The notes under the pieces: model-generated
What the model saw: the letters and a program-made list of their open reading frames with translations, nothing else
What the model was told of the DNA's origin: nothing
Database searches by the model: none
In this document: one piece after another, positions 34,302 through 57,914 of the stretch
Position numbering within the stretch: the first letter of the stretch is position 1
Layout: each line of letters opens with the position of its first letter
Translations under genes and position numbers: made by a program
Origin: Clostridia bacterium
GTDB lineage: Bacteria; Bacillota; Clostridia; Oscillospirales; CAG-272
DNA length: 64,000 nucleotides
Direction of reading: 5' to 3'
NCBI GenBank assembly: GCA_017504245.1
Contig: JAFVRQ010000009.1
Span: 2,224 to 66,223, forward strand

Positions 34302-34497
34302 TTAATTGGGACTTAGCGGGGAGAAGATTGTTGAAGCAAATACCCTCTCCGTCAACCTTTGGTTGCCACCTCTCCCTGAGTGAGAGGCTTTGATTTGTAA
34401 GCGTTCGCTTGTAAAAAGGCTCGCCCTTGGGGAGAGCTCCGCGTTAGCGGTGAGAGGGGTATTAACATAAACTAACATCCCGATAAATCAAAATTTA
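34302..34497. mobile_element. 196-bp non-coding element with imperfect terminal inverted repeats enclosing a REP-like palindrome pair
   Basis: Left end ttaattgggacttagcgggg; right end reverse complement taaattttgatttatcggga; internal taccctctc...gagaggggta closure. Confidence 0.6.
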
Positions 34498-34520
34498 TAA
34501 CAAAAATTTTCAAAAACCTC

Positions 34521-34551
34521 TTGACAATTTCGGTCGGGGGGGAGGTATAAT
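34521..34551 (+). promoter_or_regulatory. sigmaA-type promoter with a G7 tract in a 19-bp spacer
   Basis: TTGACA atttcggtcGGGGGGGagg TATAAT. Confidence 0.7.
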
Positions 34552-34680
34552 CTTTTTAGAGATACTATGCCCAAATTGATATATTTATTAAAATTTTCAA
34601 ACTTTTTTGCAAAAATTATTACACTTTTTTAAAAAAATCTTGACTATATAAGTGAAGACATTTATGAAAGGAGAATTTTT

Positions 34681-35424
34681 ATGAAAAAAGTACTATTGTT
34701 GGCATTGGCATTGATTTTATCTCTAACCTGCCTTGCTTCGTGCAGTATGTCGCCTAAAATTTCACGGTTTATTCCCGATGAAAAAATAATATGTGTTGAG
34801 ATTCAAACTATGAATTATGAAACTGGAATAGAAGATATTACTGAAAAATATACCTTGACCGATGAACAAAGCGACGAAATAATATCGTTATTGAAAGAGA
34901 TAACCTATGTAAAAAGGTATAACTTGCTCAAAGAAAAGTGGACGCACTTTAATGATGTGAAATATATTTTTACGTTTGAAACTCAAAAAATAGCGTTAAG
35001 TGAAAATCATATTGTTATTTATGATGCTAACAATGTATTAACAAAGCACGTGGAGTTTAATTCTTCAACCTTTGCCGATTATTTTGAACGGATCAACGGT
35101 ATATTGTCTGATATCTATCCCGGATTGCCCGATATCAGCGAAGATCCGATGAAAGGCATTGAGATTTACTGTTGGCAGGACGGCGGTGAATGGAAATGCG
35201 GCGGCACGGTAGGAACGAACAGACAAAAGTTTGATGATGAAATACGCGCCTTGCAGGTTGTTACAATTCCTCAAATGAAAAGAATTCTCGAACAAAAAGG
35301 ACTTACCGATTGCTTCTGCGTCATACTCGTTGACCTTTCGGGCGACGAGGTTGTATATCTTGACGTCGAGGAAAATCTTACGCAAATTGCAACGCTTGAA
35401 TTGCAGTTAGGCAGATCAGAGTAA
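34681..35424 (+). CDS. Lipoprotein, unknown function
   Basis: MKK-hydrophobic-LASC lipobox; AAGGAG RBS. Confidence 0.85.
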   Translation: MKKVLLLALALILSLTCLASCSMSPKISRFIPDEKIICVEIQTMNYETGIEDITEKYTLTDEQSDEIISLLKEITYVKRYNLLKEKWTHFNDVKYIFTFETQKIALSENHIVIYDANNVLTKHVEFNSSTFADYFERINGILSDIYPGLPDISEDPMKGIEIYCWQDGGEWKCGGTVGTNRQKFDDEIRALQVVTIPQMKRILEQKGLTDCFCVILVDLSGDEVVYLDVEENLTQIATLELQLGRSE

Positions 35425-35439
35425 AAGGAGGCAACGCAA

Positions 35440-35847
35440 ATGAGAAAGTTATTAGCTTTATGCTTGACGGTTATATTATTAATATCCTTATTAACCTCTT
35501 GTAGCATCAACAAGTATAAACCCGTTGCCATAAAATATCAAAATTCCGATTTCGCAGCGTGTGCCGAAATCTTTTTGGTTAATCTGCTTAACAATAGTAA
35601 ATGGCATAATGACGTTGCAAAATGCGAGTGTGATTATACCATAATTATGAGAAATGATAGGGAGATTTTTTACCATAGCGAAAGCGGAACGTTTATAGAT
35701 TATGATTTTAATAAATCTTTGACGGTCAGTGAAGAGGATAGAGTTAAGCTTAACGATTGTTTTGTTAATGCTATTTGTGAAAGTGAAGTTCACTTTTTTG
35801 ATGAAAACCACAGATGTTCCGCTTGCGGATATGAATTATCAAAGTAA
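35440..35847 (+). CDS. Lipoprotein with C-terminal His/Cys motif
   Basis: LTSC lipobox; HFFDENHRCSACGY. Confidence 0.85.
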   Translation: MRKLLALCLTVILLISLLTSCSINKYKPVAIKYQNSDFAACAEIFLVNLLNNSKWHNDVAKCECDYTIIMRNDREIFYHSESGTFIDYDFNKSLTVSEEDRVKLNDCFVNAICESEVHFFDENHRCSACGYELSK

Positions 35848-35862
35848 AAGGAGGTAAATACA

Positions 35863-37038
35863 ATGAAAAAGTTAGCTTTATGTTTGACGGTTATTTTGTG
35901 CTTATGCTGCCTTGCATCTTGCAAGCTGCTCCATTCCACACTCAATATTGGAGAGCATACCTATGAGTATATCCAATATGAAACGGGTCACTTTAAGCAG
36001 TACACCTGCGGTTGTCCGTCACCCGATATTATGGGCTTGCACCTTGATACCGACGATAACGGCACTTGTGACGTTTGTGGGTATGCTATGAAAATTGGCG
36101 GTGCTTTTGAATTCGAGTACGTCGCAACTGAAGAAGGACATTGTGAGCACAAGGTGGGTTCTACCTGCGACGGAACTTGTATAAAAAGTCCTCACGAAGA
36201 TAATAATAACGATTTTCAGTGTGATTATTGTAAATATTTATTAGATACATCAGGGGTTGCCCAAATCGTGCTTGATTACGAGCAATCGTTAAGAGATGAG
36301 CTTGACAGATTACACGCAGAGCATCCCGAGTTTAATTATTACTATCATCCAGTGGATGATGTTTATTGTTATTTTGTTTTAGATAGTGAAGCATCTGCAG
36401 ATGCTATCATTGAAAAATACGATATGGAAAATTTTTTCGCAAGTGCTAACGTTTCTGCCTTGAATTCTTTAAAAATGGTTGGCGTTGCCTTTGATAGAGA
36501 TGAGTTTACTGAAGAAATCCACCAAAAGATTAAGCAGATAAGCGAGAATGAAGAACTTATTGAAAGCTTATCTATTGATATGTATAGCGATTGGCATCAA
36601 AGCTATATGCCAAGAATTGAGTATTATACTGATGATGCAAGTGTCTTAGAATATGAAAGGGCTCCGTATGTACTTGCTTTTGAAAACGCAAGGGATATTA
36701 TCATTAAAAGTAAGGCGGAGTACGATGCTTATCTCGACGAGTTATTAGAAACTGCAGAATCTGATTATCAAAAAGAGAAAATAAATTCCGCAAAAGACAT
36801 ATATGACGAGTCATTTTTTGAAGAAAATGCGTTGATATTGACACGAATGGTGGTTCGAGGCTCTGGTTCAATTCAGTTAACGGTGAATAATCTCTATATT
36901 TCGGATAATAAGATTTATGTAGTGATAAGAACCGATGAACCGACTTGGGGTACGTGCGATATGCAGTTTGCCTTTTTTGCCTTTGCGGTTGATAAATACG
37001 ATGTTGTTAACGTAAACGAGGTTATTACTTTAGAATAA
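35863..37038 (+). CDS. Lipoprotein with His/Cys-rich repeats
   Basis: LASC lipobox; HLDTDDNGTCDVCGY and HEDNNNDFQCDYCKY. Confidence 0.85.
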   Translation: MKKLALCLTVILCLCCLASCKLLHSTLNIGEHTYEYIQYETGHFKQYTCGCPSPDIMGLHLDTDDNGTCDVCGYAMKIGGAFEFEYVATEEGHCEHKVGSTCDGTCIKSPHEDNNNDFQCDYCKYLLDTSGVAQIVLDYEQSLRDELDRLHAEHPEFNYYYHPVDDVYCYFVLDSEASADAIIEKYDMENFFASANVSALNSLKMVGVAFDRDEFTEEIHQKIKQISENEELIESLSIDMYSDWHQSYMPRIEYYTDDASVLEYERAPYVLAFENARDIIIKSKAEYDAYLDELLETAESDYQKEKINSAKDIYDESFFEENALILTRMVVRGSGSIQLTVNNLYISDNKIYVVIRTDEPTWGTCDMQFAFFAFAVDKYDVVNVNEVITLE

Positions 37039-37053
37039 AGGGAGGATGACAGT

Positions 37054-38598
37054 ATGAAAAAACTATTGTTTTTGTTGCTTACCTTTGTTATTGTTCTTTC
37101 TTTAGCTTCGTGTGATTTAAGTTTGAAGCACGAACATATTCAAGATGAAAAATGGTCGTTTAACTCGGAAATACATTGGAAAGACGTAACTTGCACTTGG
37201 AATATGTGCAAATTTGATATTGTTACTTATGAACATATTGATGAAGATAATGACTTGTTTTGTGATGTTTGTGGATATGAAATGTCTATCAATACAGAAG
37301 CGTGTAATCATCAATGGGATGATGGCGTAGAAGTTGAAAGCGAAGTGGGCGGATACGTTATGGAATATACCTGTTCTCTATGCGGAAGCAAACGTAGAGA
37401 AACCATTACTATTCCACCCGAAGAAAACCACTTTTTACGTAATCAGGCGGGCTGTGAATGGCTTCGTAAAATAAGTGCTGAGGATATTGCGGAAGTCAAG
37501 ATAATAAATGAGTATGTTGGTGTTGCTCCGGGAAATCTTAAAAATATTGAAAGCTCTAAAAATGAAGCTATAATCGAAAGAATTTTTGAAGAATGTTATT
37601 TGTGTGAGGTTTTGTCAATTCCGGCAGATAAAGGTCAGCTTGACGGCGGTGGTGCGGTTACCGTAAAGTTCATCTTGAAGGACGGAACGGCAAAAAAGCT
37701 ATATATCAACAACGGAAATTACTGTGATTCCGAGGGTAACTACTTTGAGTTGCTTTACAGACCCCAATTTGAAGAAAACGATAAAACAAGAGAGTCTTAT
37801 GGATTTATAACCTACATAGGAACAGGAACGGTTTACGACGGTGACAATAATTTAGTTTGCGAGCTTTCCGTTGACGAGCTTGAATTTGAATATGACGTGG
37901 ATTTGGAGTTGCCGCCCGATCTTGAGCCATATAACTACGTGTTGAAAACGGAATTTGGCGACCTTCTGTTTATCACCCCCGACATATTTTATATGGAAAC
38001 GAAAGGGGCGTGTGTTCTCGTTGGCAAAAATCTTAACGAATTGATTGCTGATGCTACAGCTATCGAGTACTCCGTAACGATGAATGACGAGGAGTGGCTT
38101 TATGAGGATTTGCAATCTACATATAAATCAGGTGAGATGGTAAGTGTAAAAATCAAAATGGCACTTGATATGGGCTACTTGTTCCTTGTTAACGGTGAGA
38201 ATATAGCTACCTGCAGTGACGTTGACGGACTTTATTGGGTATTTACTTTCACAATGCCACAAAGCGACGTTGTGATTGATTTCAAAACCTACGACGGATT
38301 TTTGCCCGATGCAAATTATTCCGTTTTGATAGAAGAATATTGGATGAAGCACCTTGATGCGCCTTGGGTTTCCATTAGATTTTACTATGGAGAATTTGCA
38401 AGCGGTGCCATAGTTGCTATGATTGATGCAGGCGGCTATACCGATGTTGAGTGGGAGGAAGTAGTTGGAGGATATACCTTTGAATACAGTGACAGTAATA
38501 GAATAACCGTTCTTTATGAAGGTGAGTTTTATACCTTAGAGGAAGCGTATATGAATGGTTATCTTACAAATGACGATTTAGCGAAGATTGCTGAATAA
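37054..38598 (+). CDS. Multidomain lipoprotein with His/Cys-rich repeats
   Basis: LASC lipobox; HIDEDNDLFCDVCGY and HQWDDG...CSLCG. Confidence 0.85.
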   Translation: MKKLLFLLLTFVIVLSLASCDLSLKHEHIQDEKWSFNSEIHWKDVTCTWNMCKFDIVTYEHIDEDNDLFCDVCGYEMSINTEACNHQWDDGVEVESEVGGYVMEYTCSLCGSKRRETITIPPEENHFLRNQAGCEWLRKISAEDIAEVKIINEYVGVAPGNLKNIESSKNEAIIERIFEECYLCEVLSIPADKGQLDGGGAVTVKFILKDGTAKKLYINNGNYCDSEGNYFELLYRPQFEENDKTRESYGFITYIGTGTVYDGDNNLVCELSVDELEFEYDVDLELPPDLEPYNYVLKTEFGDLLFITPDIFYMETKGACVLVGKNLNELIADATAIEYSVTMNDEEWLYEDLQSTYKSGEMVSVKIKMALDMGYLFLVNGENIATCSDVDGLYWVFTFTMPQSDVVIDFKTYDGFLPDANYSVLIEEYWMKHLDAPWVSIRFYYGEFASGAIVAMIDAGGYTDVEWEEVVGGYTFEYSDSNRITVLYEGEFYTLEEAYMNGYLTNDDLAKIAE

Positions 38599-38616
38599 AT
38601 AATATTAAGAAAACAG

Positions 38617-38642
38617 AAAGCGAGCCGTGTGGCTCGCTTTTT
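38617..38642. terminator. Bidirectional terminator
   Basis: aaagcgagcc-gtgt-ggctcgcttt. Confidence 0.8.
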
Positions 38643-38646
38643 GCGT

Positions 38647-38820
38647 TTAGATTTGTTTATGAACCGATTTATATTCATCATAAAACTTATAATAGGGACA
38701 TTGCTTGCCCTTGCTCTGCGAGAAGCGAACGTATTCGTCCTCGTCAAGATTTATCGTGCAAACGTTGTCCTCGTATTCCTCATCGTAGTCAAAATATACA
38801 CAGCTTTCGCAAAGAGTCAT
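38647..38820 (-). CDS. Small Cys-containing protein (DUF6472-like)
   Basis: CESCVYFDYDEE...C..NLDEDE...CPYY..YDEYK.V.KQI; AAGGAG RBS. Confidence 0.75.
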   Translation of the reverse strand: MTLCESCVYFDYDEEYEDNVCTINLDEDEYVRFSQSKGKQCPYYKFYDEYKSVHKQI

Positions 38821-38896
38821 AGCAAAATCTCCTTTCATTTTGTTTGTGATGCTATTATAACATAAAAATTCGAAATGTGCAAGAATTATTTAAGGA

Positions 38897-39393
38897 TAAA
38901 TTGGGATTTAGCGGGGAGTTGGAAAAGTTAGTTTAAATTAGGATCGCCTACGCGGCGGGCGGTCACTTTTTTGAAAAAAAGTAACCAAAAAACTTTTATC
39001 GCTTGGTGTGTGCAGATTTGACGTAAATTTTCGATAATTTGTTTTTGAACAAATTATCGGTTTTGAAAGTCCAACACCGCCCTTATGTACAAGTACAACG
39101 GTCGGCATTGGACTTTCAAAACTACGAAAACCACTATTAACATAGTGATTTTCTAAAATTTACTTCGCTAAACTATAGCCGTTTGATAACGAAATGGCTT
39201 CGTTGGATAGTAGCAAATTGGATTTTTCGAGGTGCCTGCCAACACCGAGAAAAATCATTAGTGTCAACTCGTTGACACAATTTGCGCGGCTTTAATTTAT
39301 TCCCGCGTTTAAAAAGTTTTTGGTTCTTTTTTCAAAAAGAACGAAAAAATCCTAATTTCAACTGACTTTAACTCCCAGACAAATCCAAATTCG
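38897..39393. mobile_element. 497-bp non-coding, multi-branched palindromic element with ~45-bp imperfect terminal inverted repeats (MITE-like element or structured RNA)
   Basis: Left taaattgggatttagcggggagtt..aaaagttagtttaaattaggat pairs with right atcctaatttcaactgactttaactcccagacaaatccaaattcg; at least 8 internal stems. Confidence 0.7.
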
Positions 39394-39430
39394 ATTTTCC
39401 AACTTCCAAGCAAAAACTTCGCGCGATTTA

Positions 39431-39459
39431 TTGACATCGCGGTAAATGTATGATATAAT
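39431..39459 (+). promoter_or_regulatory. sigmaA promoter of metY-metA
   Basis: TTGACA-17 bp-TATAAT with extended TG. Confidence 0.8.
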
Positions 39460-39501
39460 TCAATGTTAGTAAATTATTTATTTATATAGAGAGGTATCAC
39501 A

Positions 39502-40776
39502 ATGAAAAACAAAAAGCTTGATACTATTTGCGTGCAGGGGGCGTATTCCCCCAAGAGCGGCGAGGCGCGAGTTTGCCCCGTTGTTAAAAGCACGACGTTT
39601 TATTACGAAAAGGCGCAGCCGATGGCAGACCTTTTCGACCTTAAATCTGACGGATATTTCTATTCAAGAATAGGCAATCCCACGGTGAACGCGTTTGAGG
39701 AAAAGCTCTTAATGCTCGACGGCGGCACGGGTGCTATTGCGTGCGCTTCGGGTATGAGTGCGACTATGCTTGCGGTTCTCAACGTTTGCAACGCGGGGGA
39801 TAACATCGTTTCAGCATCTGCGGTTTACGGCGGAACATACAATCTTTTCTCCGTAACGCTCAAAAAATACGGCATCGAAACGAGATTTTTCGACCCCGAT
39901 GACACGGCAGAGAACATAGAAAAGCTCATTGACGAGCATACGAAGGTTATTTTTGCGGAAACGGTTGCAAATCCCACCATCGTTGTGCTTGATTTCGATA
40001 AAATTGCAGGAATTGCAAAGAAGCACGGCATACTCTTTATGGTGGATAACACGCTCGTTACTCCCGTTTTGTGCAAGCCAAAGGATTTTGGCGCAAACGT
40101 GGTGCTTTATTCCTCGTCAAAGTATCTTGACGGCCACGCGGTAGCACTTGGCGGTGCAATTGTGGATTGCGGTAACTTTGATTTTGCTTCGAGCAACCGT
40201 TATCCCGAATTCAACACCCCCGACGATAGCTATCACGGACTTGTTTATTCCACCTTGGGCGAAAAGGCGTTTGGAACGAAATGCCGCGTTCAGATGATGC
40301 GCGACCTCGGTGCAATTATGAGTCCCGAAAACGCATTCCTCACAAATCTCGGTATGGAAACCCTCGCGCTTCGTATGGAAAGACATTCTTATAACGCCTC
40401 TCGCGTTGCTGAATTTCTTGCAAATCACGAGAAGGTTGAGTGGGTAAAATACGGCTCGCTTGAAAGCGACCCATATCACGCGCTCGCAAAGAAATATATG
40501 CCGGGCGGACAGGGTGGTATGCTCAGCTTTGGCGTTAAGGGTGGCTCTGATGCCGCAACCGTTGTTATGGAGGGAATGAAGATGATCGCCATCGTTACAC
40601 ACGTTGCCGACGTTCGCTCCTGCGTGCTTCATCCTGCGTCAACCACACACCGTCAGCTCTCAAAGGCAGACCTTGAAAATATCGGTATTGCCGATAATCT
40701 TATTCGTCTTTCGGTTGGTATTGAAAACGTTGACGATATAATTGCCGACCTTGATGGGGCGCTTTCACAAATTTAA
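39502..40776 (+). CDS. metY: O-acetylhomoserine aminocarboxypropyltransferase (sulfhydrylase)
   Basis: YSRIGNPT, ASGMSA, YGGTY, DNT, SSSKYL.GH (PLP lysine), HPASTTHRQL; adjacent to metA. Confidence 0.9.
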   Translation: MKNKKLDTICVQGAYSPKSGEARVCPVVKSTTFYYEKAQPMADLFDLKSDGYFYSRIGNPTVNAFEEKLLMLDGGTGAIACASGMSATMLAVLNVCNAGDNIVSASAVYGGTYNLFSVTLKKYGIETRFFDPDDTAENIEKLIDEHTKVIFAETVANPTIVVLDFDKIAGIAKKHGILFMVDNTLVTPVLCKPKDFGANVVLYSSSKYLDGHAVALGGAIVDCGNFDFASSNRYPEFNTPDDSYHGLVYSTLGEKAFGTKCRVQMMRDLGAIMSPENAFLTNLGMETLALRMERHSYNASRVAEFLANHEKVEWVKYGSLESDPYHALAKKYMPGGQGGMLSFGVKGGSDAATVVMEGMKMIAIVTHVADVRSCVLHPASTTHRQLSKADLENIGIADNLIRLSVGIENVDDIIADLDGALSQI

Positions 40777-40795
40777 TTGATAAAGGAAAATAAAA

Positions 40796-41707: not shown

Positions 41708-41711
41708 AATT

Positions 41712-41746
41712 TTCCCACAAGAGAGTCTCTCTTGTGGGATTTTTTT
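41712..41746 (+). terminator. Terminator after metA
   Basis: tcccacaagaga/tctcttgtggga followed by a T tract. Confidence 0.85.
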
Positions 41747-41820
41747 GCGTTTTTTACTTGAATTTTTCAATAAAATATGATATTATATATGTGTATGTAA
41801 ACTTTAGAGAGGAGAGGCAA

Positions 41821-42759: not shown

Positions 42760-42777
42760 GAAAAGGAGGGGGACGAT

Positions 42778-46043: not shown

Positions 46044-46099
46044 AATATATATTGACAAAGTTTGTTTTTTGTGTTATATTTATCTTGGTAATATAGGTG

Positions 46100-46382
46100 G
46101 CTATGACGAAGACGGTGTTTTTTGAAGGGCTTTTAGAGAGTGCGCGGATGGTGAAAGCGCATAGCGAGTAGGGAAGCACAGATCACTTTTGAGCCGATTG
46201 CTGACTATAAACTCAGGCAATCCGTACCCCTGCGTTAAAGGGTTTGAGTGGCATTTTTGTTACAAAAGTGTTAAGGATTTATGAACAAATCTTAACAAAC
46301 TGTGAACTTTTAAAAATGCAAATTGAGTGGTACCACGGTAACTCCGTCTCAATGGTTTTTTGACCATTGGGGCGTTTTTTTA
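46100..46382 (+). ncRNA. T-box riboswitch with Ile (AUC) specifier
   Basis: AGAGAG and GGTGAAA stem-I motifs; ATC at 46182-46184; T-box AATTGAGTGGTACCACGG at 46321; terminator with T tract; upstream of ileS. Confidence 0.92.
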
Positions 46383-46410: not shown

Positions 46411-49206
46411 ATGGCAAAGGATTACACAAGTTCCTTAAATCTTCCAAGCACAAAATTTGAGATGAGAGCAAATCTTCCCACAAGAGAGCCCCTTATGCTC
46501 GAATATTGGAACAGCATCAACCTCTATAATCAGATGCAGGAGAGACGCGCGGGCAGACCCACGTTCGTGGTTCACGACGGCCCTCCATTCTCAAACGGAA
46601 ATATCCATATGGGTACTTCCTTGAACAAAATTTTGAAGGATTTTATCAACAAGTCAAAGGTGATGGAGGGTTACCTCGTACCGTTCACTCCCGGTTGGGA
46701 CAACCACGGTATGCCCATTGAGTCCGCTATCATCAAAAAGAATAAGATTGACAGAAAGAAGATGAGCATTTCCGATTTCCGCCGTCAATGTCACGCATTC
46801 GCCCAGGACTACGTTGACATTCAGATGGGTCAGTTCAAGCGTCTTGGCGTTGTTGCGGATTGGGAGCGCCCTTATCTTACAATGAACCCCGAATTTGAGG
46901 CGAGAGAGGTTCTCGTTTTCGGTGAGATGTTCAAGAAGGGTTACATCTACAAGGGTCTCAAGCCCGTTTATTGGTGCCCTAAGGACGAAACCGCTCTTGC
47001 AGAGGCGGAAATCGAATACAAGACGGACAAGTGTACCTCTATCTACGTTAAGTTCCGTGTGAACGATGATATGGGCAAGCTTGACGGCATTTGCGACAAG
47101 AATAACACGTATTTCATTATTTGGACAACTACAACCTGGACTCTTCCCGGTAACCTTGCTATCGCGCTCAATCCAGACGAGGATTACGTTGTTGCGAAGG
47201 CAGAGAACGGTGAGTGCTACATCGTAGCGGAGGCGCTTCTTCCCAAGACGATGGAGGAAGGACAGATTGAGAACTATGAGGTTCTTGCAAGGATGCCCGG
47301 TAGAGAATTTGAATATATGAAGGCACAGCATCCCTTCCTTGATAGAGAGAGTCTTGTTTGCGTGGCTGATTACGTTACTATGGACAGCGGTACGGGTTGC
47401 GTTCACACCGCTCCCGGCTTTGGTGCTGACGACTATCAGACCTGCCAGAGATACGGCATTGAAATCATCGTTCCCGTTGACGACCGCGGTTATCAGACGA
47501 AGGATGCGGGCAAGTTTGCAGGTCTTTACTATGAAGAATCCAACAAGGCAATTCTTGAAGATATGGTAGAAAGCGGCGCACTCTTTGCATCAAAGGAATT
47601 CGAGCACGAATATCCTCACTGCTGGAGATGTAAGAACCCCATTATCTTCCGCGCAACACCTCAGTGGTTCTGCTCGGTTGATGCATTTAAGGACGAAGCG
47701 GTAGCCGCTTGCAAGGGCGTTCAATGGCTTCCCGAATGGGGCGGTGACAGAATGGAGCAGATGATCAGAGAGAGAGCCGATTGGTGTATCTCACGTCAGC
47801 GTCATTGGGGTCTTCCCATTCCCGTATTCTACTGTGAGGATTGCGGCAAGCCAATTTGCACCGATGAAACTATTAAGAGAGTATCCGAGGTGTTTGGAGC
47901 AGAGGGCTCTAACGCTTGGTTTGACAAGGAAGCAAGTGAGCTTCTTCCCGATGGATTTGTTTGTCCTCACTGTGGAGGCGTTCACTTTACAAAAGAGCAC
48001 AACACTCTTGACGGTTGGTTTGACTCCGGCTCGTCACATTTCTGCGCTCCCGACCTCTATCGCGAAATCGGTGAAGCGGCAGACGTTTATCTTGAGGGTG
48101 CTGACCAGTACAGAGGTTGGTTCCAGTCATCACTTCTTACTGCGGTTGGCGCGGTTGGAAGCGGTGCGCCCTTTAAGACCGTTCTTACGCACGGTTGGGT
48201 AGTTGACGGAGAGGGCAAGGCGATGCACAAGTCCCTTGGTAACTCCATCGCTCCCGAGGAGATGGTTGGCAAATACGGCGCGGATCTCGTTCGTCTTTGG
48301 GTTGCTTCGAGTGACTATCGCGTTGACGTTCGCGTTTCCGACAACATCTTCAAGCAGCTTTCAGAAACATACAGAAAGATCAGAAACACGAGCCGTATCA
48401 TTCTTGCAAACCTTAACGATTTCAATCCCGATACGGATATGGTTGCTCTTGACGAGCTTTATGAGATCGACAAGTGGGCGCTCAGCCGTCTTAACAATCT
48501 TGCAAGGGTTATCCGCGAGGGCTACGATACTTATGAATTCCATACGGTTTACCATAGCGTTAACAACTTCTGCACGAACGATCTTTCAAAGCTCTATATT
48601 GACATCACAAAGGACAGAGTTTACGTTGAAAAGAGTGACAGCAAGGCAAGAAGAAGCGCGCAGACCGCTATGTACCTTATCATTTCCGGTATGACGCGTC
48701 TTATCGCTCCTATGCTTTCATTTACCGCAGAGGAGATTTGGCAGGCAATGCCTCACTCAAAGGATGACGTTAAGGATAGCGTATTCCTTAACCTTATGCC
48801 CGAATATTGTGAGGAGCTTACTTTTGGTGATATTAGTGAGCATTGGAACAAGCTCTTTACACTTCGTGACGACGTTATGAAGGCACTTGAATTGGCTCGT
48901 GCTTCAAAGCTTATCGGTAAGTCACTTGACGCGAAGGTTACTATCTATACAACTAACGAGGAACACAAGGCAGTTCTTGATAGCTTTGCAAACGATCTTG
49001 CGACCGTATTTATCGTTTCGCAGGCGAAGGTCGTTGCAGGTGAAGGAGTTGAGGGTGCATTCGCGGAAACCGAAAGCGGAATTGCAGTTCTCGTTGAAAA
49101 GGCGGACGGACACAAGTGCGACCGTTGCTGGACATATTCAACCGAGGGTGTTCACGATGAGGACGGCTTCCTTTGCGAAAGATGCCGCAAAATTCTTGAA
49201 GCATAA
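46411..49206 (+). CDS. ileS: Isoleucine--tRNA ligase (type 1, C-terminal zinc finger)
   Basis: HDGPP, PGWDNHGMPIE, WTTTTWTLP, WCISRQR.WG, DQYRGWF, KCDRCW...CERC. Confidence 0.98.
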   Translation: MAKDYTSSLNLPSTKFEMRANLPTREPLMLEYWNSINLYNQMQERRAGRPTFVVHDGPPFSNGNIHMGTSLNKILKDFINKSKVMEGYLVPFTPGWDNHGMPIESAIIKKNKIDRKKMSISDFRRQCHAFAQDYVDIQMGQFKRLGVVADWERPYLTMNPEFEAREVLVFGEMFKKGYIYKGLKPVYWCPKDETALAEAEIEYKTDKCTSIYVKFRVNDDMGKLDGICDKNNTYFIIWTTTTWTLPGNLAIALNPDEDYVVAKAENGECYIVAEALLPKTMEEGQIENYEVLARMPGREFEYMKAQHPFLDRESLVCVADYVTMDSGTGCVHTAPGFGADDYQTCQRYGIEIIVPVDDRGYQTKDAGKFAGLYYEESNKAILEDMVESGALFASKEFEHEYPHCWRCKNPIIFRATPQWFCSVDAFKDEAVAACKGVQWLPEWGGDRMEQMIRERADWCISRQRHWGLPIPVFYCEDCGKPICTDETIKRVSEVFGAEGSNAWFDKEASELLPDGFVCPHCGGVHFTKEHNTLDGWFDSGSSHFCAPDLYREIGEAADVYLEGADQYRGWFQSSLLTAVGAVGSGAPFKTVLTHGWVVDGEGKAMHKSLGNSIAPEEMVGKYGADLVRLWVASSDYRVDVRVSDNIFKQLSETYRKIRNTSRIILANLNDFNPDTDMVALDELYEIDKWALSRLNNLARVIREGYDTYEFHTVYHSVNNFCTNDLSKLYIDITKDRVYVEKSDSKARRSAQTAMYLIISGMTRLIAPMLSFTAEEIWQAMPHSKDDVKDSVFLNLMPEYCEELTFGDISEHWNKLFTLRDDVMKALELARASKLIGKSLDAKVTIYTTNEEHKAVLDSFANDLATVFIVSQAKVVAGEGVEGAFAETESGIAVLVEKADGHKCDRCWTYSTEGVHDEDGFLCERCRKILEA

Positions 49207-49217
49207 AGGAGATTATA

Positions 49218-50694: not shown

Positions 50695-50700
50695 TGAAAT

Positions 50701-50758
50701 ATGATACCGTACAATAAAAAAATAGTTTCTAATGCGTGAACGTTAAGAAAAATATGAC
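50701..50758 (+). pseudogene. N-terminal remnant of a DUF559/Vsr-like endonuclease gene
   Basis: Reads MIPYNKKIVSNA*TLRK, then N-M-T after a frameshift; resembles the YN..L...AR.LRKNMT start of DUF559 proteins as recalled, not searched. Confidence 0.55.
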
Positions 50759-50868
50759 GCGTGGGGTAATTGTTCCATTGCGGCTTCAACAACAGATTAT
50801 GTCGTAGCTCATACAAATCTCATTAGATACCGTGGCTATTATTTTGACCAAGAAAGTGGTTGATACTT
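50750..50868 (+). pseudogene. RHS core fragment
   Basis: KYDAWGNCSIAASTTDYVVAHTNLIRYRGYYFDQESG*Y, homologous to the RHS core at 1674-2429. Confidence 0.8.
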
Positions 50869-50941
50869 AGTTTGATTGTGGGAAGTTTTGTTAATGCTAT
50901 TTCGCCCAAATAAAAACAACAATATTGATGGAGGAAATAAA

Positions 50942-51730: not shown

Positions 51731-51754
51731 CAATGCGTGGTATCTTTGTATAAC

Positions 51755-51792
51755 TAAAAAACGGCTCTCGAAATTTTTCGAGAGCCGTTTTT
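51755..51792. terminator. Bidirectional terminator
   Basis: aaaaacggctctcga/tcgagagccgttttt. Confidence 0.85.
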
Positions 51793-51799
51793 ATTAGTT

Positions 51800-53458
51800 T
51801 TATTTTATTTCAATAATGGACTCATTCCACATATCGGGTGCTTCGTAGCCGAGGAGGTTAACCATTGTGGCGGCTACGTTTGCAAGGCCGAACTGTCCGT
51901 TATCTTCCTTTACCGTGTAATTTTCAGAGTAGAAATTATCGTAGATGATGCAGGGAACGGGATTAAGTGTATGGCTTGTTTTGGATTTGAAGCTGCCGTC
52001 CTTTTCTGCTTTTGGCTGCTTTGTCTTCTTATCCATTTCATACATTTCGTCTGCGTTTCCGTGGTCTGCTGTAATAAGCGCAACGCCGTGGAGCTTATCA
52101 ACAACGTCGATAATTCTCTTGAGCTGAAGGTCGAGCGCTTCCATTGAGCAACGGGTTGCCTGAAGGTTGCCTGTGTGACCAACCATATCACCGTTGGGGA
52201 AGTTTACGCGAAGGTATGCGTATTTTCCGCTTTCAAGACATTCGATGAGCTTATCAGTGATTTCTGCGCACTTCATCCAAGGTCTTTGCTCGAAGGGAAC
52301 AACGTCGGAGGGAATTTCGATATAGGTTTCAAGCTCTTCGGAGAATTTGCCACTCTTGTTTCCGTTCCAAAAGTAAGTTACGTGGCCGTATTTCTGCGTT
52401 TCGGAGATTGCGAGCTGGCTTACGCCTGCGTCTGTGAGGTATTCGCCGAGAGTGTTTGTGATTTCGGGGGGATTTACGAGATATTTTGAGGGGATATGGA
52501 GGTCGCCGTCGTATTCGAGCATACCTGCGTAAACTACGCTTGGCACACGAACTCTATCGAATTTATCGAATTCTGCGCCGCCCTCGAACGCCTTTGAAAT
52601 CTCGATTGAACGGTCACCGCGGAAGTTATAGAAGATAACGCTATCGCCATCGTTGATCGTACCAACGGGCTCGCCGTTTTCTGCGATAACGAAGGGGGGG
52701 AGATCCTGGTCGATAACCTTATATTCCTCGCGATAGGTCTCTACTGCCTTTGCTGCGCAGCAGAACTGTCTGCCCTCACCGAGAACGTGCGTCTTCCAGC
52801 CGAGGTCAACCATTGCCCAGTTTGCTTCGTATCTATCCATTGTGATTTTCATTCTGCCTCCGCCGCTTGCGATGCGCGCGTCAAAGCCCTCACCGTTAAG
52901 AGAAGCGAGGAAATCCTCGAAGGGAAGAATGTATTCAAGAGCAGACGTTTCGCCAACGTCACGTCCGTCGATAAGGATGTGAATTCTAACCTTGCTTACG
53001 CCCTCAACCTTTGCCTGCTCAAGCATTGCTTTAAGGTGGTCGATGTGGGAGTGAACGTTACCGTCGGAGAAAAGTCCGATGAAGTGGAGGGTAGAACCAT
53101 TTGACTTTACATTTGAAATAAGCTCGCACCAGGTGTTTGAAGTGAACATTTTTTTGCTTTCAATAGAATTTGAAACGAGCTTTGCGCCCTGAGCGAAAAC
53201 CTGACCTGAGCCAAGCGCATTGTGTCCAACCTCGGAGTTACCCATATCGTCATCGGAGGGAAGTCCTACTGCCGTTCCGTGCGCCTTGAGGGAAACCATA
53301 GGGTATTTTGCCATAAGCATATCGAGTGTGGGAGTATAAGCGCCCGCAACTGCGTTTGAAATTGTGTCGGGAGCAAGACCTACACCGTCCATAACTACTG
53401 TGAGCACGGGACCCTTTACTCCTTCAAAATTGTTAAGTTTATTGAGAGTTTTGTTCAT
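51800..53458 (-). CDS. gpmI: 2,3-bisphosphoglycerate-independent phosphoglycerate mutase
   Basis: MDG.G, MGNSEVGH, SDGNVHSH, DGRD, NFRGDR, ETQKYGHVT, DMVGHTG, TADHGNA. Confidence 0.97.
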   Translation of the reverse strand: MNKTLNKLNNFEGVKGPVLTVVMDGVGLAPDTISNAVAGAYTPTLDMLMAKYPMVSLKAHGTAVGLPSDDDMGNSEVGHNALGSGQVFAQGAKLVSNSIESKKMFTSNTWCELISNVKSNGSTLHFIGLFSDGNVHSHIDHLKAMLEQAKVEGVSKVRIHILIDGRDVGETSALEYILPFEDFLASLNGEGFDARIASGGGRMKITMDRYEANWAMVDLGWKTHVLGEGRQFCCAAKAVETYREEYKVIDQDLPPFVIAENGEPVGTINDGDSVIFYNFRGDRSIEISKAFEGGAEFDKFDRVRVPSVVYAGMLEYDGDLHIPSKYLVNPPEITNTLGEYLTDAGVSQLAISETQKYGHVTYFWNGNKSGKFSEELETYIEIPSDVVPFEQRPWMKCAEITDKLIECLESGKYAYLRVNFPNGDMVGHTGNLQATRCSMEALDLQLKRIIDVVDKLHGVALITADHGNADEMYEMDKKTKQPKAEKDGSFKSKTSHTLNPVPCIIYDNFYSENYTVKEDNGQFGLANVAATMVNLLGYEAPDMWNESIIEIK

Positions 53459-53634
53459 TTAGAACCTCCAAAATAAATTATATTTTTTCACTACCCTTTA
53501 GTATAACTTTTTTTGATGATTTTTGCAATAGTTTTTGAGAAAAAATAAAATAATATTTTCACAAACTTGACTTTTTGCGTTTTGTGGTGTATAATAATCC
53601 AGTTGAAATTATCTTTTCGAAAGGAAGTATATAT

Positions 53635-54468
53635 ATGTCAGAGTGTACGCACAACTGTTCGAGTTGTTCACATAGCTGCTCGACGAAGTCGAAGCAGGAT
53701 TTTTTAGAGCCGATTAATGCAAAATCGAAAATCAAGCACGTTATCGGTGTCGTTAGCGGAAAGGGTGGCGTTGGCAAGTCGATGGTGACTTCAACTCTTG
53801 CCGTTTTGATGCAGAGAGCGGGCTACAGGGTTGGTATTCTTGATGCCGATATTACGGGTCCTTCAATTCCGAAGGCGTTTGGAGTTTACGGTGACGTTGA
53901 GGGTGACGATAGCGGTATGATTCCGCCCGAAAGCTCTACGGGAATTAAGATTATGAGCGTTAATCTCCTTTTGCCCGATGCGACGGCTCCCGTGGTTTGG
54001 AGAGGTCCCGTTATTGCGGGCACCGTTAAGCAATTCTGGTCGGGCACGGTTTGGGGTGATCTTGACTACCTTTTCGTTGACTGTCCTCCCGGAACGGGTG
54101 ACGTTCCGCTCACGGTTTTCCAAAGTATTCCGCTTGATGGGATAGTTATCGTTTCATCTCCGCAGGAGCTTGTTTCGATGATAGTTGAAAAGGCGGCTAA
54201 TATGGCGAAGATGATGGGCGTTGACGTTATTGGACTTGTTGAAAATATGAGCTACGTTAAATGTCCCGATTGCGACAAGATCATCAAAATTTTCGGTGAG
54301 AGTCATATTGAGGAAATCGCGCAGAAGTTCGGTTATCCGCTTCTTGCAAAGATGCCCATTGATCCCGCACTTGCTTCGCTTGTTGACGCGGGTAGGATTG
54401 AGGATATGAACGCAAACTATCTTGATGGTGCGGTTGAGATTCTTAAAACGGTTAAAAATATAAAGTGA
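53635..54468 (+). CDS. Mrp/NBP35 Fe-S cluster carrier ATPase
   Basis: N-terminal Cys cluster, SGKGGVGKS, DADITGPS, PPGTGD, ENMS..CPDC. Confidence 0.95.
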   Translation: MSECTHNCSSCSHSCSTKSKQDFLEPINAKSKIKHVIGVVSGKGGVGKSMVTSTLAVLMQRAGYRVGILDADITGPSIPKAFGVYGDVEGDDSGMIPPESSTGIKIMSVNLLLPDATAPVVWRGPVIAGTVKQFWSGTVWGDLDYLFVDCPPGTGDVPLTVFQSIPLDGIVIVSSPQELVSMIVEKAANMAKMMGVDVIGLVENMSYVKCPDCDKIIKIFGESHIEEIAQKFGYPLLAKMPIDPALASLVDAGRIEDMNANYLDGAVEILKTVKNIK

Positions 54469-54482
54469 TTCAGGGAAACAAA

Positions 54483-55127
54483 ATGGTTAAGTTAATTATA
54501 GTCAGACACGGAAACAGTATTGGTAATTTTAAGAGAATTTTCATCGGTCAGACGGACTGGGGGCTCTCGGAGGTAGGAGAGGAGCAGGTTAGACGATTGA
54601 CCGAATATTTGAAGGATTTTCATATTGATGAGATCTATTCGAGTGACCTTTGCAGAGCGTATAACACGGTGCTTCCGACGGCTCAGCGACTCGGACTTGA
54701 AATTCACAAAAGGGAAGGCCTGCGCGAAATTTACGCGGGTGAATGGGAGCAGAAGACATTTGTTGAGCTTGCCGAAGATTTTCCCGAAACATATTGGACG
54801 TTCCAAAACGATATTGGAAACGCGCAGCCCGACGGGGGAGAGAAGATTTCCGACGTTTTTGCGAGAATTAAGAAGGCGATTGAGGATATTCTTGCGGAGA
54901 ACGAGGGTAAAACCGTGCTTATCGGCACGCACGCGACGGTTATTCGCGTTATGAATTGCCTTTGGCACGACGATACGCTTGAAAATTTGCAAAAGTACGA
55001 TTGGGTGTCTAATGCGGCGGTTTGCCATATTGAATATGAAAATGGCAAGTATAACGTTGTTGAATACGGTCACGATGCGCATCTTGAGGGAATTATTACT
55101 CACGTTGGGGTTAAAAAACAAGATTAA
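54483..55127 (+). CDS. Histidine phosphatase family protein
   Basis: VRHG, SSDL.RA, LREI..G.WE, GGE, TH. Confidence 0.93.
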   Translation: MVKLIIVRHGNSIGNFKRIFIGQTDWGLSEVGEEQVRRLTEYLKDFHIDEIYSSDLCRAYNTVLPTAQRLGLEIHKREGLREIYAGEWEQKTFVELAEDFPETYWTFQNDIGNAQPDGGEKISDVFARIKKAIEDILAENEGKTVLIGTHATVIRVMNCLWHDDTLENLQKYDWVSNAAVCHIEYENGKYNVVEYGHDAHLEGIITHVGVKKQD

Positions 55128-55286
55128 TATTGAAAAATGTCGGTTTTTCGTTGTGCAGGTTGCACAAAATTTATGAAAAGCCGATATTTTTTATATAAAC
55201 TATTTACAAATAACGATAAATGTGATATAATCAAATCAGAAAGAGGTGGCTCTTTCATTGAAATAAAACTCGAAAGGAATGATTTG

Positions 55287-55814
55287 ATGAAGATTACTAT
55301 TGTTGGCAGACAGATGAACGTTTGGGATTCAACCAAGGAAATGGCTGAAAAGAAACTCGCAAAGCTGGACAAATATTTTGGTTCAGAGGCCTCCGCAACA
55401 GTAACGTTCAGTTGCAAGCGCGAGCGTGACAGCGTTGAAATCACGATTCGCGGTGCTAACACAATCTTTCGCGCTGAGGTTGAGGATACCAGCTTCCAGA
55501 ACGCTATGGATCGCTGCGTAGAGGTTATTGACCGCCAGATCAGAAAGAACAAAACTCGTCTTGAAAAAAGACTTAAAGAGGGCGAATTCACCTTTCCTGA
55601 TTTTGACGAGGGTCTTGATGAGGATCCCGAATTTATCGTTAGAACAAAGGAGTTTGAGCTCTTCCCGATGAGCGTTGAAGAAGCAATTATGCAGATGAAT
55701 TTGCTTGGACATCAGTTCTTCGTTTTCTTCAATGACGAGATCGACAACGTTTCCGTTGTTTACACAAGAAAAGACGGAAGCTACGGACTTATTAACCCTG
55801 TGATTTATAAATAG
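55287..55814 (+). CDS. hpf: Ribosome hibernation promoting factor (long HPF/RaiA)
   Basis: KKL.KLDKYF, RQIRKNKTRL, PMSVEEAI.QM.LLGH.F. Confidence 0.95.
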   Translation: MKITIVGRQMNVWDSTKEMAEKKLAKLDKYFGSEASATVTFSCKRERDSVEITIRGANTIFRAEVEDTSFQNAMDRCVEVIDRQIRKNKTRLEKRLKEGEFTFPDFDEGLDEDPEFIVRTKEFELFPMSVEEAIMQMNLLGHQFFVFFNDEIDNVSVVYTRKDGSYGLINPVIYK

Positions 55815-55820
55815 TGTTAA

Positions 55821-55853
55821 CCACCCCCACCGCGCAGGCGGTGGGGGATTTTT
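55821..55853 (+). terminator. Terminator after hpf
   Basis: cccccaccgc/gcggtggggg followed by a T tract. Confidence 0.85.
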
Positions 55854-55931
55854 GTAGTTGACAAAAATAGGAAATGGTGATAGAATGTAGACAGAAGTGC
55901 CGACGGGCTGAAACGGGAAAGAGAAATACCT

Positions 55932-57287
55932 ATGAAAAATTTATTGATTAGTATTATTGCTTGTGCTATTGCTCTTGTGGCAATAGTTGTGGCATTTGTG
56001 GTTGCCGGAGATGATGGAACAAATGGAATTGATGGTATAAACGGTAAAGATGGATTAACACCTACCATAGAAATTAGTGATGACGGGTATTGGATTATTA
56101 ATGGTATAAAAACCGAATATATTGCTATTGGTAAAGATGGTAGTGATGGTCAAGATGGAACTAACGGCGTTGATGGTGAAACTCCTACTATCGAAATTAG
56201 TGACGATGGATATTGGATTATCAATGGTGAAAAAACTAACGTTTTGGCAAACAATGACGAAAATCCCCAGGGACTTGATTTTTGGTTGAGAGATGACGGT
56301 TGTTATGCCGTATCTGTAGGAAAAGCTAAGTATTTGAGTCATATTGAAATTCCGTCAACATATTTAGGTAGACCTGTAGTGGAAATTGAAGACGAAGGAT
56401 TTGCGAATTGTACTGCCCTTATAAGTGTTAAGATACCCGATTCTGTTACAAACATTGGTTTTGGTGCATTCTATGGTTGCTATTCACTTCTAAGTATAAC
56501 TATTCCCAAATCGATTATCAGTATTGAATATGAAGCATTTGAAGAATGTATTTCACTTTTCGAAGTTTGCAATAAGTCCTCATTGGATATAGTTGCGGGA
56601 ACTGTGCCCGGAGGCGGTATGGAGTTGGTTTTTCACGGAAAAGTGGGCCTTTATGCAAAACATATTATTAGCGATGAATCGCAAACTGCACTTAAGACTG
56701 TGAATGACTGTATATTCTTTGATAACGGAGTTGATGCTTATCTTATGAAATACATTGGTAAGGGTGGTGCGATTGAACTTCCTACGCTAGAAGGAAAAGA
56801 ATATGAGATTTTTGAAAATGCATTTCGTGAAAATGCTAATGTAACTAACGTGATAATTCCGGATTGTGTAACAAAAATAGGTAGATCTGCTTTTGAGGAT
56901 TGCACCTCACTTGAAAGTGTAATAATTGGAAACTCCGTCAAAGAGATTGGTACGTCTGCTTTCTATAACTGTGAAGCTCTTGAAAGTGTGATTATTGGTA
57001 ACAGTGTAAATGCTATTTATGGTGGTGTATTTCAAAATTGCGAATCGCTCACAAAAATAAATATTCCCGATAGCGTGACTACTATGGGGGGATATGTATT
57101 TTCAAATTGTCATTCGTTACGCAAAATTGTAATACCGGATTCTGTTAAAACATTGCTTGGGTCTGCATTCGAAAATTGCGGCAGTGATCTTACCGTTTAT
57201 TGTGAAGCATCATCAATGCCACAGGGCTGGTATTTCCCGTTCGATAAATCTAGCTGTTCGGTTGTTTGGGGCTATAAGGGTGAATGA
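55932..57287 (+). CDS. Membrane-anchored BspA-type LRR protein with collagen-like G-x-D linkers
   Basis: N-terminal TM; two TPTIEISDDGYWIING repeats with GxD/GxN triplets; LRR_5 repeats; C-cap TVYCEA...VVWGY. Confidence 0.9.
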   Translation: MKNLLISIIACAIALVAIVVAFVVAGDDGTNGIDGINGKDGLTPTIEISDDGYWIINGIKTEYIAIGKDGSDGQDGTNGVDGETPTIEISDDGYWIINGEKTNVLANNDENPQGLDFWLRDDGCYAVSVGKAKYLSHIEIPSTYLGRPVVEIEDEGFANCTALISVKIPDSVTNIGFGAFYGCYSLLSITIPKSIISIEYEAFEECISLFEVCNKSSLDIVAGTVPGGGMELVFHGKVGLYAKHIISDESQTALKTVNDCIFFDNGVDAYLMKYIGKGGAIELPTLEGKEYEIFENAFRENANVTNVIIPDCVTKIGRSAFEDCTSLESVIIGNSVKEIGTSAFYNCEALESVIIGNSVNAIYGGVFQNCESLTKINIPDSVTTMGGYVFSNCHSLRKIVIPDSVKTLLGSAFENCGSDLTVYCEASSMPQGWYFPFDKSSCSVVWGYKGE

Positions 57288-57335
57288 ATAATGATACATT
57301 TAGGAACGCTCGGGTGGGCGCTCCTTTTGTTATGG

Positions 57336-57620
57336 AATTTCTGTGCTGTGCGGGTGGGGAAAAGACCTTGGGTTGATAAGAAAAGTCAAAGAGTTCGACG
57401 CGAAAAAAACTGTCCCGCGAGCCCCCGCCCACTCCCCGACACTTTGTGTCTTCACTCGAAAATATAGTCGTCTCGGGTGTATGCTGAAGCATACGCCCGA
57501 TACTCCTTATTTTCTCCCTTCTCATCCTTCCTTTTTCCGCCACAGGCGGCGGTCGGATTCGAAGCCTCTCGCCCCCAGAGGGTTATAAGAGTGGTGCGTA
57601 AAGGGGAAGCATAGAGAATT
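57336..57620. repeat. GC-rich multi-hairpin intergenic element
   Basis: Closing stem aatttctgtgct/agcatagagaatt; hairpins tcgggtgtatgct/agcatacgcccga, ccgcc/ggcgg, cctct/agagg. Confidence 0.5.
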
Positions 57621-57914
57621 TTAGTATTTATTGGGTAATTTAAAAGGTTAGTTTAGATTTGGAACAGGTCGTCGGGGATGCCGATTCCTACGGTGTTTGC
57701 GGTTATTTTATTGAAAGATAATAGACATATAGCGAATAAAAAATAAGATGTCATCCTGAGCGGTAGCGAAGTTTTGCGAGGGAGCACCGTCGAGCTGAGC
57801 AAAACCAATTGTGCCTTTAGGTACAATTGGGATCTATTAAGGAATTTTATGTACCATTTTTAACATAAAGTCACTTTTTATTCGTTTGCTCGATTTAAAA
57901 CAAATCAAAATTTG
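57617..57914. mobile_element. Degenerate third copy of the TIR-bounded element, carrying two REP-like palindromes
   Basis: aaaggttagtttagatttggaac resembles aaaagttagtttaaattaggatc (38923); right end caaatcaaaatttg; GTAG-type REP at 57667-57691; TGTCATCCTGAGC...GATCT at 57749-57835. Confidence 0.45.

Follow-up and report, generated by a model that had tools for sequence, protein, structure and literature searches.

Intergenic mosaic repeats framed by two different inverted ends in an uncultured gut Clostridia genome and its relatives

Three short intergenic elements with similar ends lie in a 64,000-nt stretch of DNA from an uncultured gut Clostridia bacterium (contig JAFVRQ010000009.1, positions 2,224 to 66,223; hereafter the window), and the locus raises the question of what these elements are and how they came to be there. 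A preliminary description of the window had given them a single shared inverted end around unrelated palindromic interiors, and had proposed that the ends are recombination sites at which a trans-acting recombinase moves cassettes, in the manner of an integron or of miniature inverted-repeat transposable elements (MITEs). Here we follow the ends through the source assembly (G000; 1,556,205 bases in 102 contigs, 75% complete, 42% G+C; the window's contig is C99), the other genomes of its genus and public sequence collections. The ends matter and the interiors turn over, so that the proposal of cassette recombination is partly supported. The reading we prefer, at a probability of roughly 55%, is that the elements are high-copy, non-coding and non-autonomous mosaic repeats, similar to MITEs and to bacterial interspersed mosaic elements (BIMEs), which carry two different ends and are moved in trans.

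The core of the end, AAATT[GT][GT]GATTTA[GT]CGGG (AAATTKKGATTTAKCGGG), matches the whole 1.56-Mb assembly 223 times when up to three mismatches are allowed (68 exact matches, 77 with one mismatch, 48 with two and 30 with three). Three shuffles of the assembly in 1-kb blocks, which set the chance baseline, gave 5, 8 and 5 matches, all but one of them at three mismatches, so that the observed number lies far above expectation. When the 23 genomes of the genus, including the source genome, were scanned with at most one mismatch, the reversed pattern used as a control had no match in any of them. Crude open reading frames (ORFs) of at least 110 amino acids cover 83% of the assembly, and just 7 of the 223 ends fall inside one; the units are thus intergenic.

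Aligned with their flanks, 221 ends fall mainly into two types, T (TTC followed by AAATTTTGATTTRTCGGGGAG) and G ((G)AT followed by AAATTGKGATTTAKCGGGGAG). The T type (107 ends) has the loop TT and the consensus ttc followed by AAATTTTGATTTATCGGGGAGTTA, with the flanking TTC conserved at 96, 93 and 87% per position, and the G type (97 ends) has the loop GG or GT and the consensus at followed by AAATTGGGATTTAnCGGGnAGTT, with the flanking GAT conserved at 59, 65 and 73%; a looser definition of the G class gives 107 ends of each type. The types differ mainly in the two central bases of the dyad (TTTG in T versus TGGG in G) and also in the outermost 3 nt. Conservation peaks over the first 21 nt and then decays inward, the inverted ends are at least 21 nt long and the inverted repeat spans 20–50 nt. 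A common motif is therefore present, as first described, but as two distinct types per unit rather than one sequence. A 7-4-7 dyad (GATAAAT TGGG ATTTATC) is one possible reading of the G-end. No clear covariation was found in the terminal dyad, and flank and dyad are only weakly associated (C with G 7, C with T 3, A with T 38, A with G 32), which leaves a conserved hairpin beyond 4 bp unsupported. The sites of CodY, Fur and Zur and the hix and dif sites seem to resemble the dyad only loosely.

The two types pair with each other. Under strict pairing, 24 of 27 pairs join one T-end to one G-end, and relaxed pairing gives 77 complete inverted units of 63–828 nt (median 394), together 29.7 kb or 1.9% of the assembly: 62 T+G, 8 G with another end, 6 T with another end, one T+T and no G+G. 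In five of these 77 units a crude ORF spans more than half of the length. Of the 169 ends that have no strict partner, 99 face a contig end that lies within less than 700 nt, which indicates that this repeat is what fragments the assembly; about half of all contig ends break inside motif-bearing units.

In the window itself, a blind pairing script recovered the first two elements. Element 1 (34303..34496; minus strand, where strand denotes the T-to-G direction; 194 nt) has on its left a G-type end, AATTAATTGGGACTTAGCGGGGAG, with about three mismatches and its outermost base at 34303, and on its right an exact T-type end that reads inward as TATAAATTTTGATTTATCGGGATG from its outermost base at 34496. 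Its interior belongs to the 'CCCTCTCC...GAGAGGG' hairpin class, which is also found at the orthologous site in the related genome G020 and at other loci, and which lies flipped within its frame at C61:11653-11848 (contigs of the source assembly are numbered with C, genomes with G and extracted loci with L). Element 2 (38898..39392; minus strand; 495 nt) is a member of the commonest mosaic family, of about 500 nt, with 36 matches in the genome; its left end is an exact G-type end, GATAAATTGGGATTTAGCGGGGAG, and its right end a degenerate T-like one that reads inward as ATCGAATTTGGATTTGTCTGGGAG, with three mismatches and the flank ATC. Element 3 (57617..57913; no strand assigned) is degenerate on both sides and was missed by the script: its left end (57617-57660) is T-like with a 1-nt insertion, and on the right just the outer 14 nt of a T-end are intact, AAATCAAAATTT plus 2 nt (57902-57913). 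The three elements and their shared motif are thus real, the third as a decayed copy. Hairpins that are rich in G and C and resemble repetitive extragenic palindromes (REPs) adjoin element 3 and lie inside it (window 57400-57600 and 57740-57820), including a repeat of the 'gtcatcctgagcg...' type, related copies of which occur inside other units (e.g., C25:6133-6360 and C73:33978-34210).

Only the ends are constant throughout the family. The interiors differ, as had been noted, but they are not simply unrelated: they are mosaics of modules that are common to other copies. Within a 511-nt query around element 2, the pieces at positions 96-276, 133-276, 230-310 and 293-453 each occur alone in many relatives, and an alignment of ten copies reveals a layered inverted symmetry that runs from the end through GTTAGTTTAAATTAGGA, an AT-rich hairpin and CCAAAAACTTTT to variable hairpin blocks. 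Full-length copies of about 500 nt are 82–92% identical and their similarity stops at the T and G termini, which indicates that the whole T-to-G unit is the copied entity. The genome holds 87 sites at which the tag GTAG is joined to a GC hairpin, most of them of the form GTAGGGG-hairpin-CCGY and in about ten sequence families (about 70 are of the GTAGGG type by reading of the list), and 28 of the 87 lie no more than 450 nt inward of a T- or G-end, in line with the REP-like hairpins that had been proposed to accumulate between the ends. Relative to the T-to-G frame, related interiors have the same orientation in 239 pairs, are flipped in 198 and are ambiguous in 9 (446 pairs). A 300-nt block that was checked, 87% identical between two units, adjoins the T-end in one of them and the G-end in the other. 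Flipped interiors were seen only between different loci. The simplest explanation of such replacement and flipping would be recombination between copies through their shared ends and inner inverted repeats.

We compared orthologous sites among species that are 70–90% identical, a distance at which the insertion point cannot be placed to the base. Some species have a site empty where others have it filled, and in filled sites the ends are kept and the interiors differ. The cleanest site, C51:15654-16077, is empty in G014, which reads ...CCTCCCCC AT AAATTTAAGGA..., and is filled in the source genome, G002 and G018 by three different interiors between identical junctions (AC followed by AAATTGGG... 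on one side, ...CAAAATTTGAAAATC followed by AAATTTAAGGA on the other); the target and the G-end have AAATT in common at both junctions. The empty sites of G014 and G002 have no TTC, which therefore belongs to the unit rather than to the target. At C76:49077-49390, four species have the G-end and the T-end in the same places around four different interiors. The site C76:47038-47529 is empty in G002 and filled in both the source genome and G020, which share the left flank and the T-end there and differ in the interior. C76:58061-58450 is filled in the source genome and, by another unit, in G002, and is empty in G008, G020 and G018, a pattern that fits two independent insertions into one spacer. 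These comparisons point to a frame that, once in place, persists across species while its interior is replaced or inverted, with units being gained and lost in spacers.

The persistence of frames around differing interiors could also mean that a trans-acting site-specific recombinase uses the ends for crossover, T recombining only with T and G only with G, such that a double crossover swaps the interiors (recombinase-mediated cassette exchange). The pairing of T with G (62 units against one T+T and no G+G) agrees with this, as do the AAATT that the target and the G-end share at both junctions of the cleanest site and the position of the main type difference at two central bases, which a second lineage retains as two types with shifted centres (see below). 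Cassette exchange, however, preserves the orientation of an interior, yet 198 of the 446 related pairs are flipped, and new sites arise where relatives have no frame. None of the candidate recombinases in the source genome (one Xer-like, one patchy phage-like, two large serine recombinases) tracks the ends, and a 4-nt centre between arms of 4–7 bp is shorter than known tyrosine recombinase sites. We consider this explanation unlikely.

A search of 66 oriented units at 14 x 15 boundary offsets found no direct repeat of 2–7 nt beyond the conserved terminal bases, in agreement with the preliminary description, which saw no target-site duplication. Among the marks of a MITE, the units have inverted ends, small size, no coding capacity and many copies; they lack target duplication, and no full-length insertion sequence (IS) with the same ends was found in the source genome or in the end-bearing loci of other assemblies. 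Classical MITEs of a DDE-type IS that is missing from the fragmented assemblies would account for intergenic, small, high-copy units with inverted ends of 20–50 nt, and because assemblies break at repeats, a multicopy IS could indeed be lost from them. Such elements are nevertheless decidedly improbable here: no duplication is found at any tested offset, the two end types are consistently distinct in their outermost 3 nt and in the dyad centre, the sole DDE element found in the source genome (of the IS3 family, on C102) has unrelated TG... ends, DDE_Tnp_1 gave no match there, and none of at least 113 end-bearing loci from metagenome-assembled genomes (MAGs; 80 with 2-kb flanks) has a transposase inward of an end.

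The placement of the units bears on whether they act on their neighbors. Ends face gene starts (55 T, 46 G; 101 in all) about as often as gene ends (50 T, 56 G; 106), and the source genome shows no rule of orientation relative to neighboring genes. Oriented from T to G, 68 cases oppose the local gene majority and 43 agree with it, another 78 being ambiguous (p = 0.02). Convergent genes flank many units; some units lie between promoter-like sequence and a ribosome-binding site, and several in leaders or between the genes of an operon. In the source genome, eight G-ends (C29:404, C50:6004, C55:38535, C72:62, C8:3897, C82:384, C93:4871 and C95:13697) abut one conserved leader of about 70 nt (...cttgactatagtagtgtagg) of lipoprotein genes, with the unit between leader and gene and at least five different interiors following. 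The same leader also precedes the first lipoprotein gene of the window (compare window 34600-34660).

Positions between promoter-like sequence and ribosome-binding site, together with interiors in both orientations within the frame and window neighbors that encode lipoproteins, a leucine-rich repeat (LRR) protein and a polysaccharide flippase, are what one would look for in invertons like the RecV-controlled switches of Clostridioides difficile, in which a master invertase would flip the ends and toggle nearby surface-protein genes. We find this very unlikely, since the units number about 110 or more per 1.5 Mb, gene ends and gene starts are faced equally often, convergent genes flank many of the units and the two ends differ in their dyad centre; moreover, no small invertase gene was found in the source genome, and among the 15 listed of 19 joints in metagenome contigs none changes strand, although contigs show such joints poorly. 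The units might instead be immobile, their ends acting for the host as binding sites or RNA stems, for instance in mRNA processing, in termination or in the structure of the nucleoid, and spreading by duplication and recombination. The ends are indeed conserved across species and in MAGs of differing G+C whose interiors are not, and several units are placed to be transcribed in leaders or within operons. But no Rfam family covers them, no gene-orientation rule and no covariation in the terminal dyad were found, and the presence or absence of units at orthologous sites and their range of 0–164 copies among related species fit a selfish element better than a host function. We accordingly give this explanation little credence.

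The Rfam search of the window returned at gathering threshold only a T-box leader (RF00230, 100.2 bits), and over 34200-39500 matches with E up to 5 were at chance level, so that no family matches the units. In the papers listed, four 12-mers from the ends are printed only as primers and in unrelated contexts, and no relevant miniature inverted-repeat element was found for Clostridia or the rumen. These searches gave no named element for the end, in keeping with the preliminary description, which recognized none.

Within the genus, the motif occurs in 19 of the 23 genomes, with 161 matches in the source genome and 7–164 in its relatives; G007, G011, G016 and G021, at 83–97% completeness, gave none. 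Outside the genus it is rare in the order, with a single match in each of 6 of 300 other genomes sampled from 30 families. An exact-match scan of 185,579 species representatives gave at least 113 stretches, most of them from MAGs of uncultured Clostridia, Eubacteriales or Oscillospiraceae from ruminant guts. In these stretches the same ends stand beside quite different interiors, down to a 66-nt unit in L075, and several of the loci have a G+C content of 46–59% with no or weak DNA similarity to the source genome. Five further MAGs contain 45–165 matches each, with none for the control. One of the five, the higher-G+C genome G326 (reached through L094), has the end types AAATTTGGATTT and AAATTGGGGTTT in place of AAATTTTGATTT and AAATTGGGATTT, which suggests that within a lineage the two ends drift together. 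Plasmid and phage collections matched the ends only over short low-complexity stretches, and viral contigs gave three exact motif matches, at most one of which is genuine.

In the contigs of four public gut-metagenome DNA runs, the summed contig depth over element 2 is about 565–1640 compared with 5–16 on its flanks (about 100-fold), a figure that sums all organisms and is not a copy number. Contigs in all four runs end at unit borders. Among public RNA runs, none was listed as containing the stretch.

Which enzyme could move such units? The preliminary description had seen no recombinase in the window, and Pfam finds none on C99. Elsewhere in the source genome the Pfam matches are rve on C102, Phage_integrase on C84 and C18 and Resolvase on C94 and C89, whereas Cas12f1-like_TNB (TnpB), DDE_Tnp_1 and PDDEXK_2 (Rpn) have no match. 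The rve match is the IS3-family element (orfA/orfB, 95.8 bits; C102:3900-5016, cut by the contig end), the left end of which, TGTGAAGTTACC, is unrelated to the T- and G-ends. Phage_integrase marks one Xer-like tyrosine recombinase and one patchy phage-like protein that is found in 9 of 22 relatives and is absent from the end-rich G008, and the two large serine recombinases matched by Resolvase have no ends on their contigs. The only long pair of ends (2423 nt, C74:6813-9235) consists of two G-ends of separate units around an Mre11/SbcD-like gene, and a candidate for a multicopy element, C12:1057-3322 / C87:1-2266, is one stretch assembled twice (99.96% identity) that contains three ORFs without a Pfam family. 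The ORFs inward of unpaired ends in the source genome are ordinary genes, and neither these nor any ORF inward of an end among the listed MAG loci resembles a transposase gene.

Genes for Y1 transposases that resemble RAYTs (REP-associated tyrosine transposases) are present alongside the units. The source genome has one intact RAYT-like gene (C100:7513-8085, minus strand) and two decayed copies; the intact protein scores 61.8 bits (E = 6e-17) against NF047646, where the cut-off is 80, and 21.5 bits against PF01797, where it is 23. Similar genes occur in 17 of 22 relatives, with up to 7 matches, and are missing from three of the four motif-free genomes (G007, G011 and G016). A unit or an end lies beside the RAYT-like gene in L012, L021 and L017. 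Several of these ORFs (C100:7513-8085, which is L010 1501-2073, and those in L011, L012, L014 and L018) contain an inverted pair of their own GTAG-tagged REP, one arm on either side of the HUH motif. The arms are 24–31 nt long, 133–149 nt apart and 92–100% complementary, their sequence differs between paralogues, and the arm of the source genome's copy recurs as a small genomic REP family. The portions of PMC3733652 and PMC5581495 available to us contain no description of such a pair.

Taken together, the units are in our reading a new family within the MITE- and BIME-like intergenic repeats. Their constancy makes the ends the most likely recognition sites of a trans-acting protein. The mover would be an enzyme that leaves no duplication, and the most plausible kind is a single-strand Y1 HUH transposase of the IS200, RAYT or TIRYT type: the lack of duplication, the two end types and the Y1 HUH genes in the same genomes together make a RAYT- or TIRYT-like enzyme our first guess.

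Several observations weigh against this reading. No gene flanked by T- and G-ends, whether for a recombinase or a transposase, was found in the source genome, in the MAG loci or around RAYT-like genes (0 of 12 loci, L010-L021, have a RAYT-like gene flanked by the ends), although the assemblies are fragmented at repeats, so that the absence of an enzyme-bearing unit from them is not proof of absence. The terminal dyad, of only 4–7 bp and rich in A and T, is unlike the GC-rich hairpins known for Y1 enzymes. The four motif-free genomes are also the most diverged (67–78% DNA identity), so that presence and absence follow phylogeny, and the correlation between RAYT-like genes and the motif is for this reason weak evidence. 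It is also imperfect: no RAYT-like gene was found in G003 or G022, each with few ends; the end-free G021 has RAYT-like matches, with stops and broken-looking; and of the five other end-rich MAGs, this query found RAYT-like genes in three and not in two. The bias in strand is mild and possibly inflated by unit halves counted twice on two contigs. Finally, no empty allele is bridged by the contigs of the four metagenome runs, which drop minor variants and thus cannot show them.

A bolder possibility, which we regard as speculative and unlikely, is that the T- and G-ends are mutually incompatible docking sites of an undescribed recombination system. In such a system a permanent intergenic frame would have hairpin cassettes, including the REP doublets (REPINs) of several RAYT paralogues, exchanged and inverted inside it, a non-coding and genome-wide form of cassette exchange in uncultured gut Clostridia, and the ends and their enzyme would co-evolve, as the pair AAATTTGGATTT / AAATTGGGGTTT of G326 suggests.

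The genes around the elements help to separate the units from their neighborhood. Between elements 1 and 2 lie four lipoprotein genes (34681..38598, plus strand; lipoboxes LASC, LTSC, LASC and LASC; no Pfam family), which are outside the repeat family, and a small DUF6472 gene (38647..38838, minus strand) that adjoins the G-end of element 2. The latter is a conserved neighbor that does not belong to the element: G014 and G004 lack element 2 and have the gene all the same. The lipoprotein genes make up a hypervariable island, bordered on one side by a conserved cyclase-like gene and on the other by a gene for a Cys/Met pyridoxal phosphate (PLP) enzyme (window 34290-39480). In relatives the flanks of this island are adjacent, from about 0.3 to 5.2 kb apart, and enclose 0, 1, 2, 3 or 4 lipoprotein genes with or without ends (loci L135-L146): G014 has neither a lipoprotein gene nor an end, G002 has three genes and no end, and G015 and G008 have one gene each with differing end layouts. 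At the site of element 1, G020 has the same unit and G018 a different one, while G008 keeps the T-end beside the same promoter region with another interior. The idea that the array is a cassette bounded by the ends is not borne out by these relatives. The likeness to an integron fails as well, with no integrase next to the array or anywhere on the window's contig, sites that are not in uniform orientation, ends that are inverted pairs around non-coding DNA, and lipoprotein genes that occur without ends in G002. Other neighbors in the window are the BspA-type LRR protein and the polysaccharide flippase. The T-box leader lies at 46094-46354 (plus strand), upstream of a 931-amino-acid ORF at 46411-49206.

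How do the units compare with known systems? In Escherichia coli, REPs come in the types Y and Z. The parts of PMC3733652 and PMC5581495 available to us describe the BIME and REP/REPIN systems with RAYTs of Enterobacteria and Pseudomonas as intergenic mosaics with inverted copies of two slightly different end motifs and variable modules, and in these respects the present units are alike. Also alike are the lack of target duplication, the high copy number and the lineage-specific sequence, and GTAG REPs and RAYT-like genes are found here in the same genomes. The constant ends of the units, however, are AT-rich dyads of 12–18 nt plus CGGGGAG, have no GTAG tag and are not GC-rich palindromes, while the GTAG REPs are passengers inside units or lie elsewhere and none of the RAYT-like genes at the 12 loci is flanked by the ends. 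The units are thus mosaics with inverted ends, as BIMEs are, but their T- and G-ends are not REPs in the sense of a GTAG- or CGTC-tagged imperfect palindrome of 20–40 nt.

TIRtrons, as described in the part of Di Nocera et al. 2013 (PMC3733652) available to us, carry Y1 transposase genes (TIRYT) between long terminal inverted repeats (TIRs) that also form repeat families. As with the units, these families consist of inverted repeats that have no relation to GTAG REPs, and they occur in genomes that also carry RAYT-like genes. A G-rich motif, GGGGWSAS, is found in some TIRs (same source and part), and the ends here have GGGGAG after the dyad, with GGGGAGTT and GGGGAGAA not fitting exactly. Unlike in TIRtrons, the defining Y1 gene between the repeats was looked for here and not found.

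Other comparisons are more distant. The Correia elements (NEMIS/CREE) of Neisseria are hundreds of non-coding intergenic units of 100–150 nt with inverted ends, a TA duplication and one conserved interior, and are often co-transcribed with their neighbors; we know of no transposase for them. The units described here differ in having no duplication, two end types and mosaic interiors over 63–828 nt. The IS200/IS605 elements and their miniature derivatives (PATEs) share with the units the lack of target duplication, the differing left and right ends, a short conserved sequence that abuts one end (here TTC, at 87–96% of T-ends) and a mild strand bias. The ends here are true inverted repeats over 20–50 nt, however, TTC is absent from the two empty sites in G014 and G002 and so is not the target, and no TnpA or TnpB gene lies between such ends in the source genome. 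The RecV switches of C. difficile and the pdif modules of Acinetobacter plasmids likewise have short inverted sites around a segment that is flipped or exchanged, and some of the units lie in 5' leaders, but the copy number here is far higher, there is no gene-orientation rule, the centres of the sites differ and no matching recombinase was found.

The pattern is therefore unlike that of ordinary miniature transposons, in that two differing ends stay constant across species while the interior between them is replaced or turned round. Assemblies of MAGs from this ruminant-gut group come in a hundred or more pieces, which the units explain, and the units provide a dense set of markers for strain typing. 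Because several of them lie in leaders or between operon genes, they probably shape the expression of nearby lipoprotein and other surface genes. Should an enzyme that reads the ends be found, it would be a DNA tool of a new, end-specific kind and an example of repeat ends co-evolving with the enzyme that moves them.

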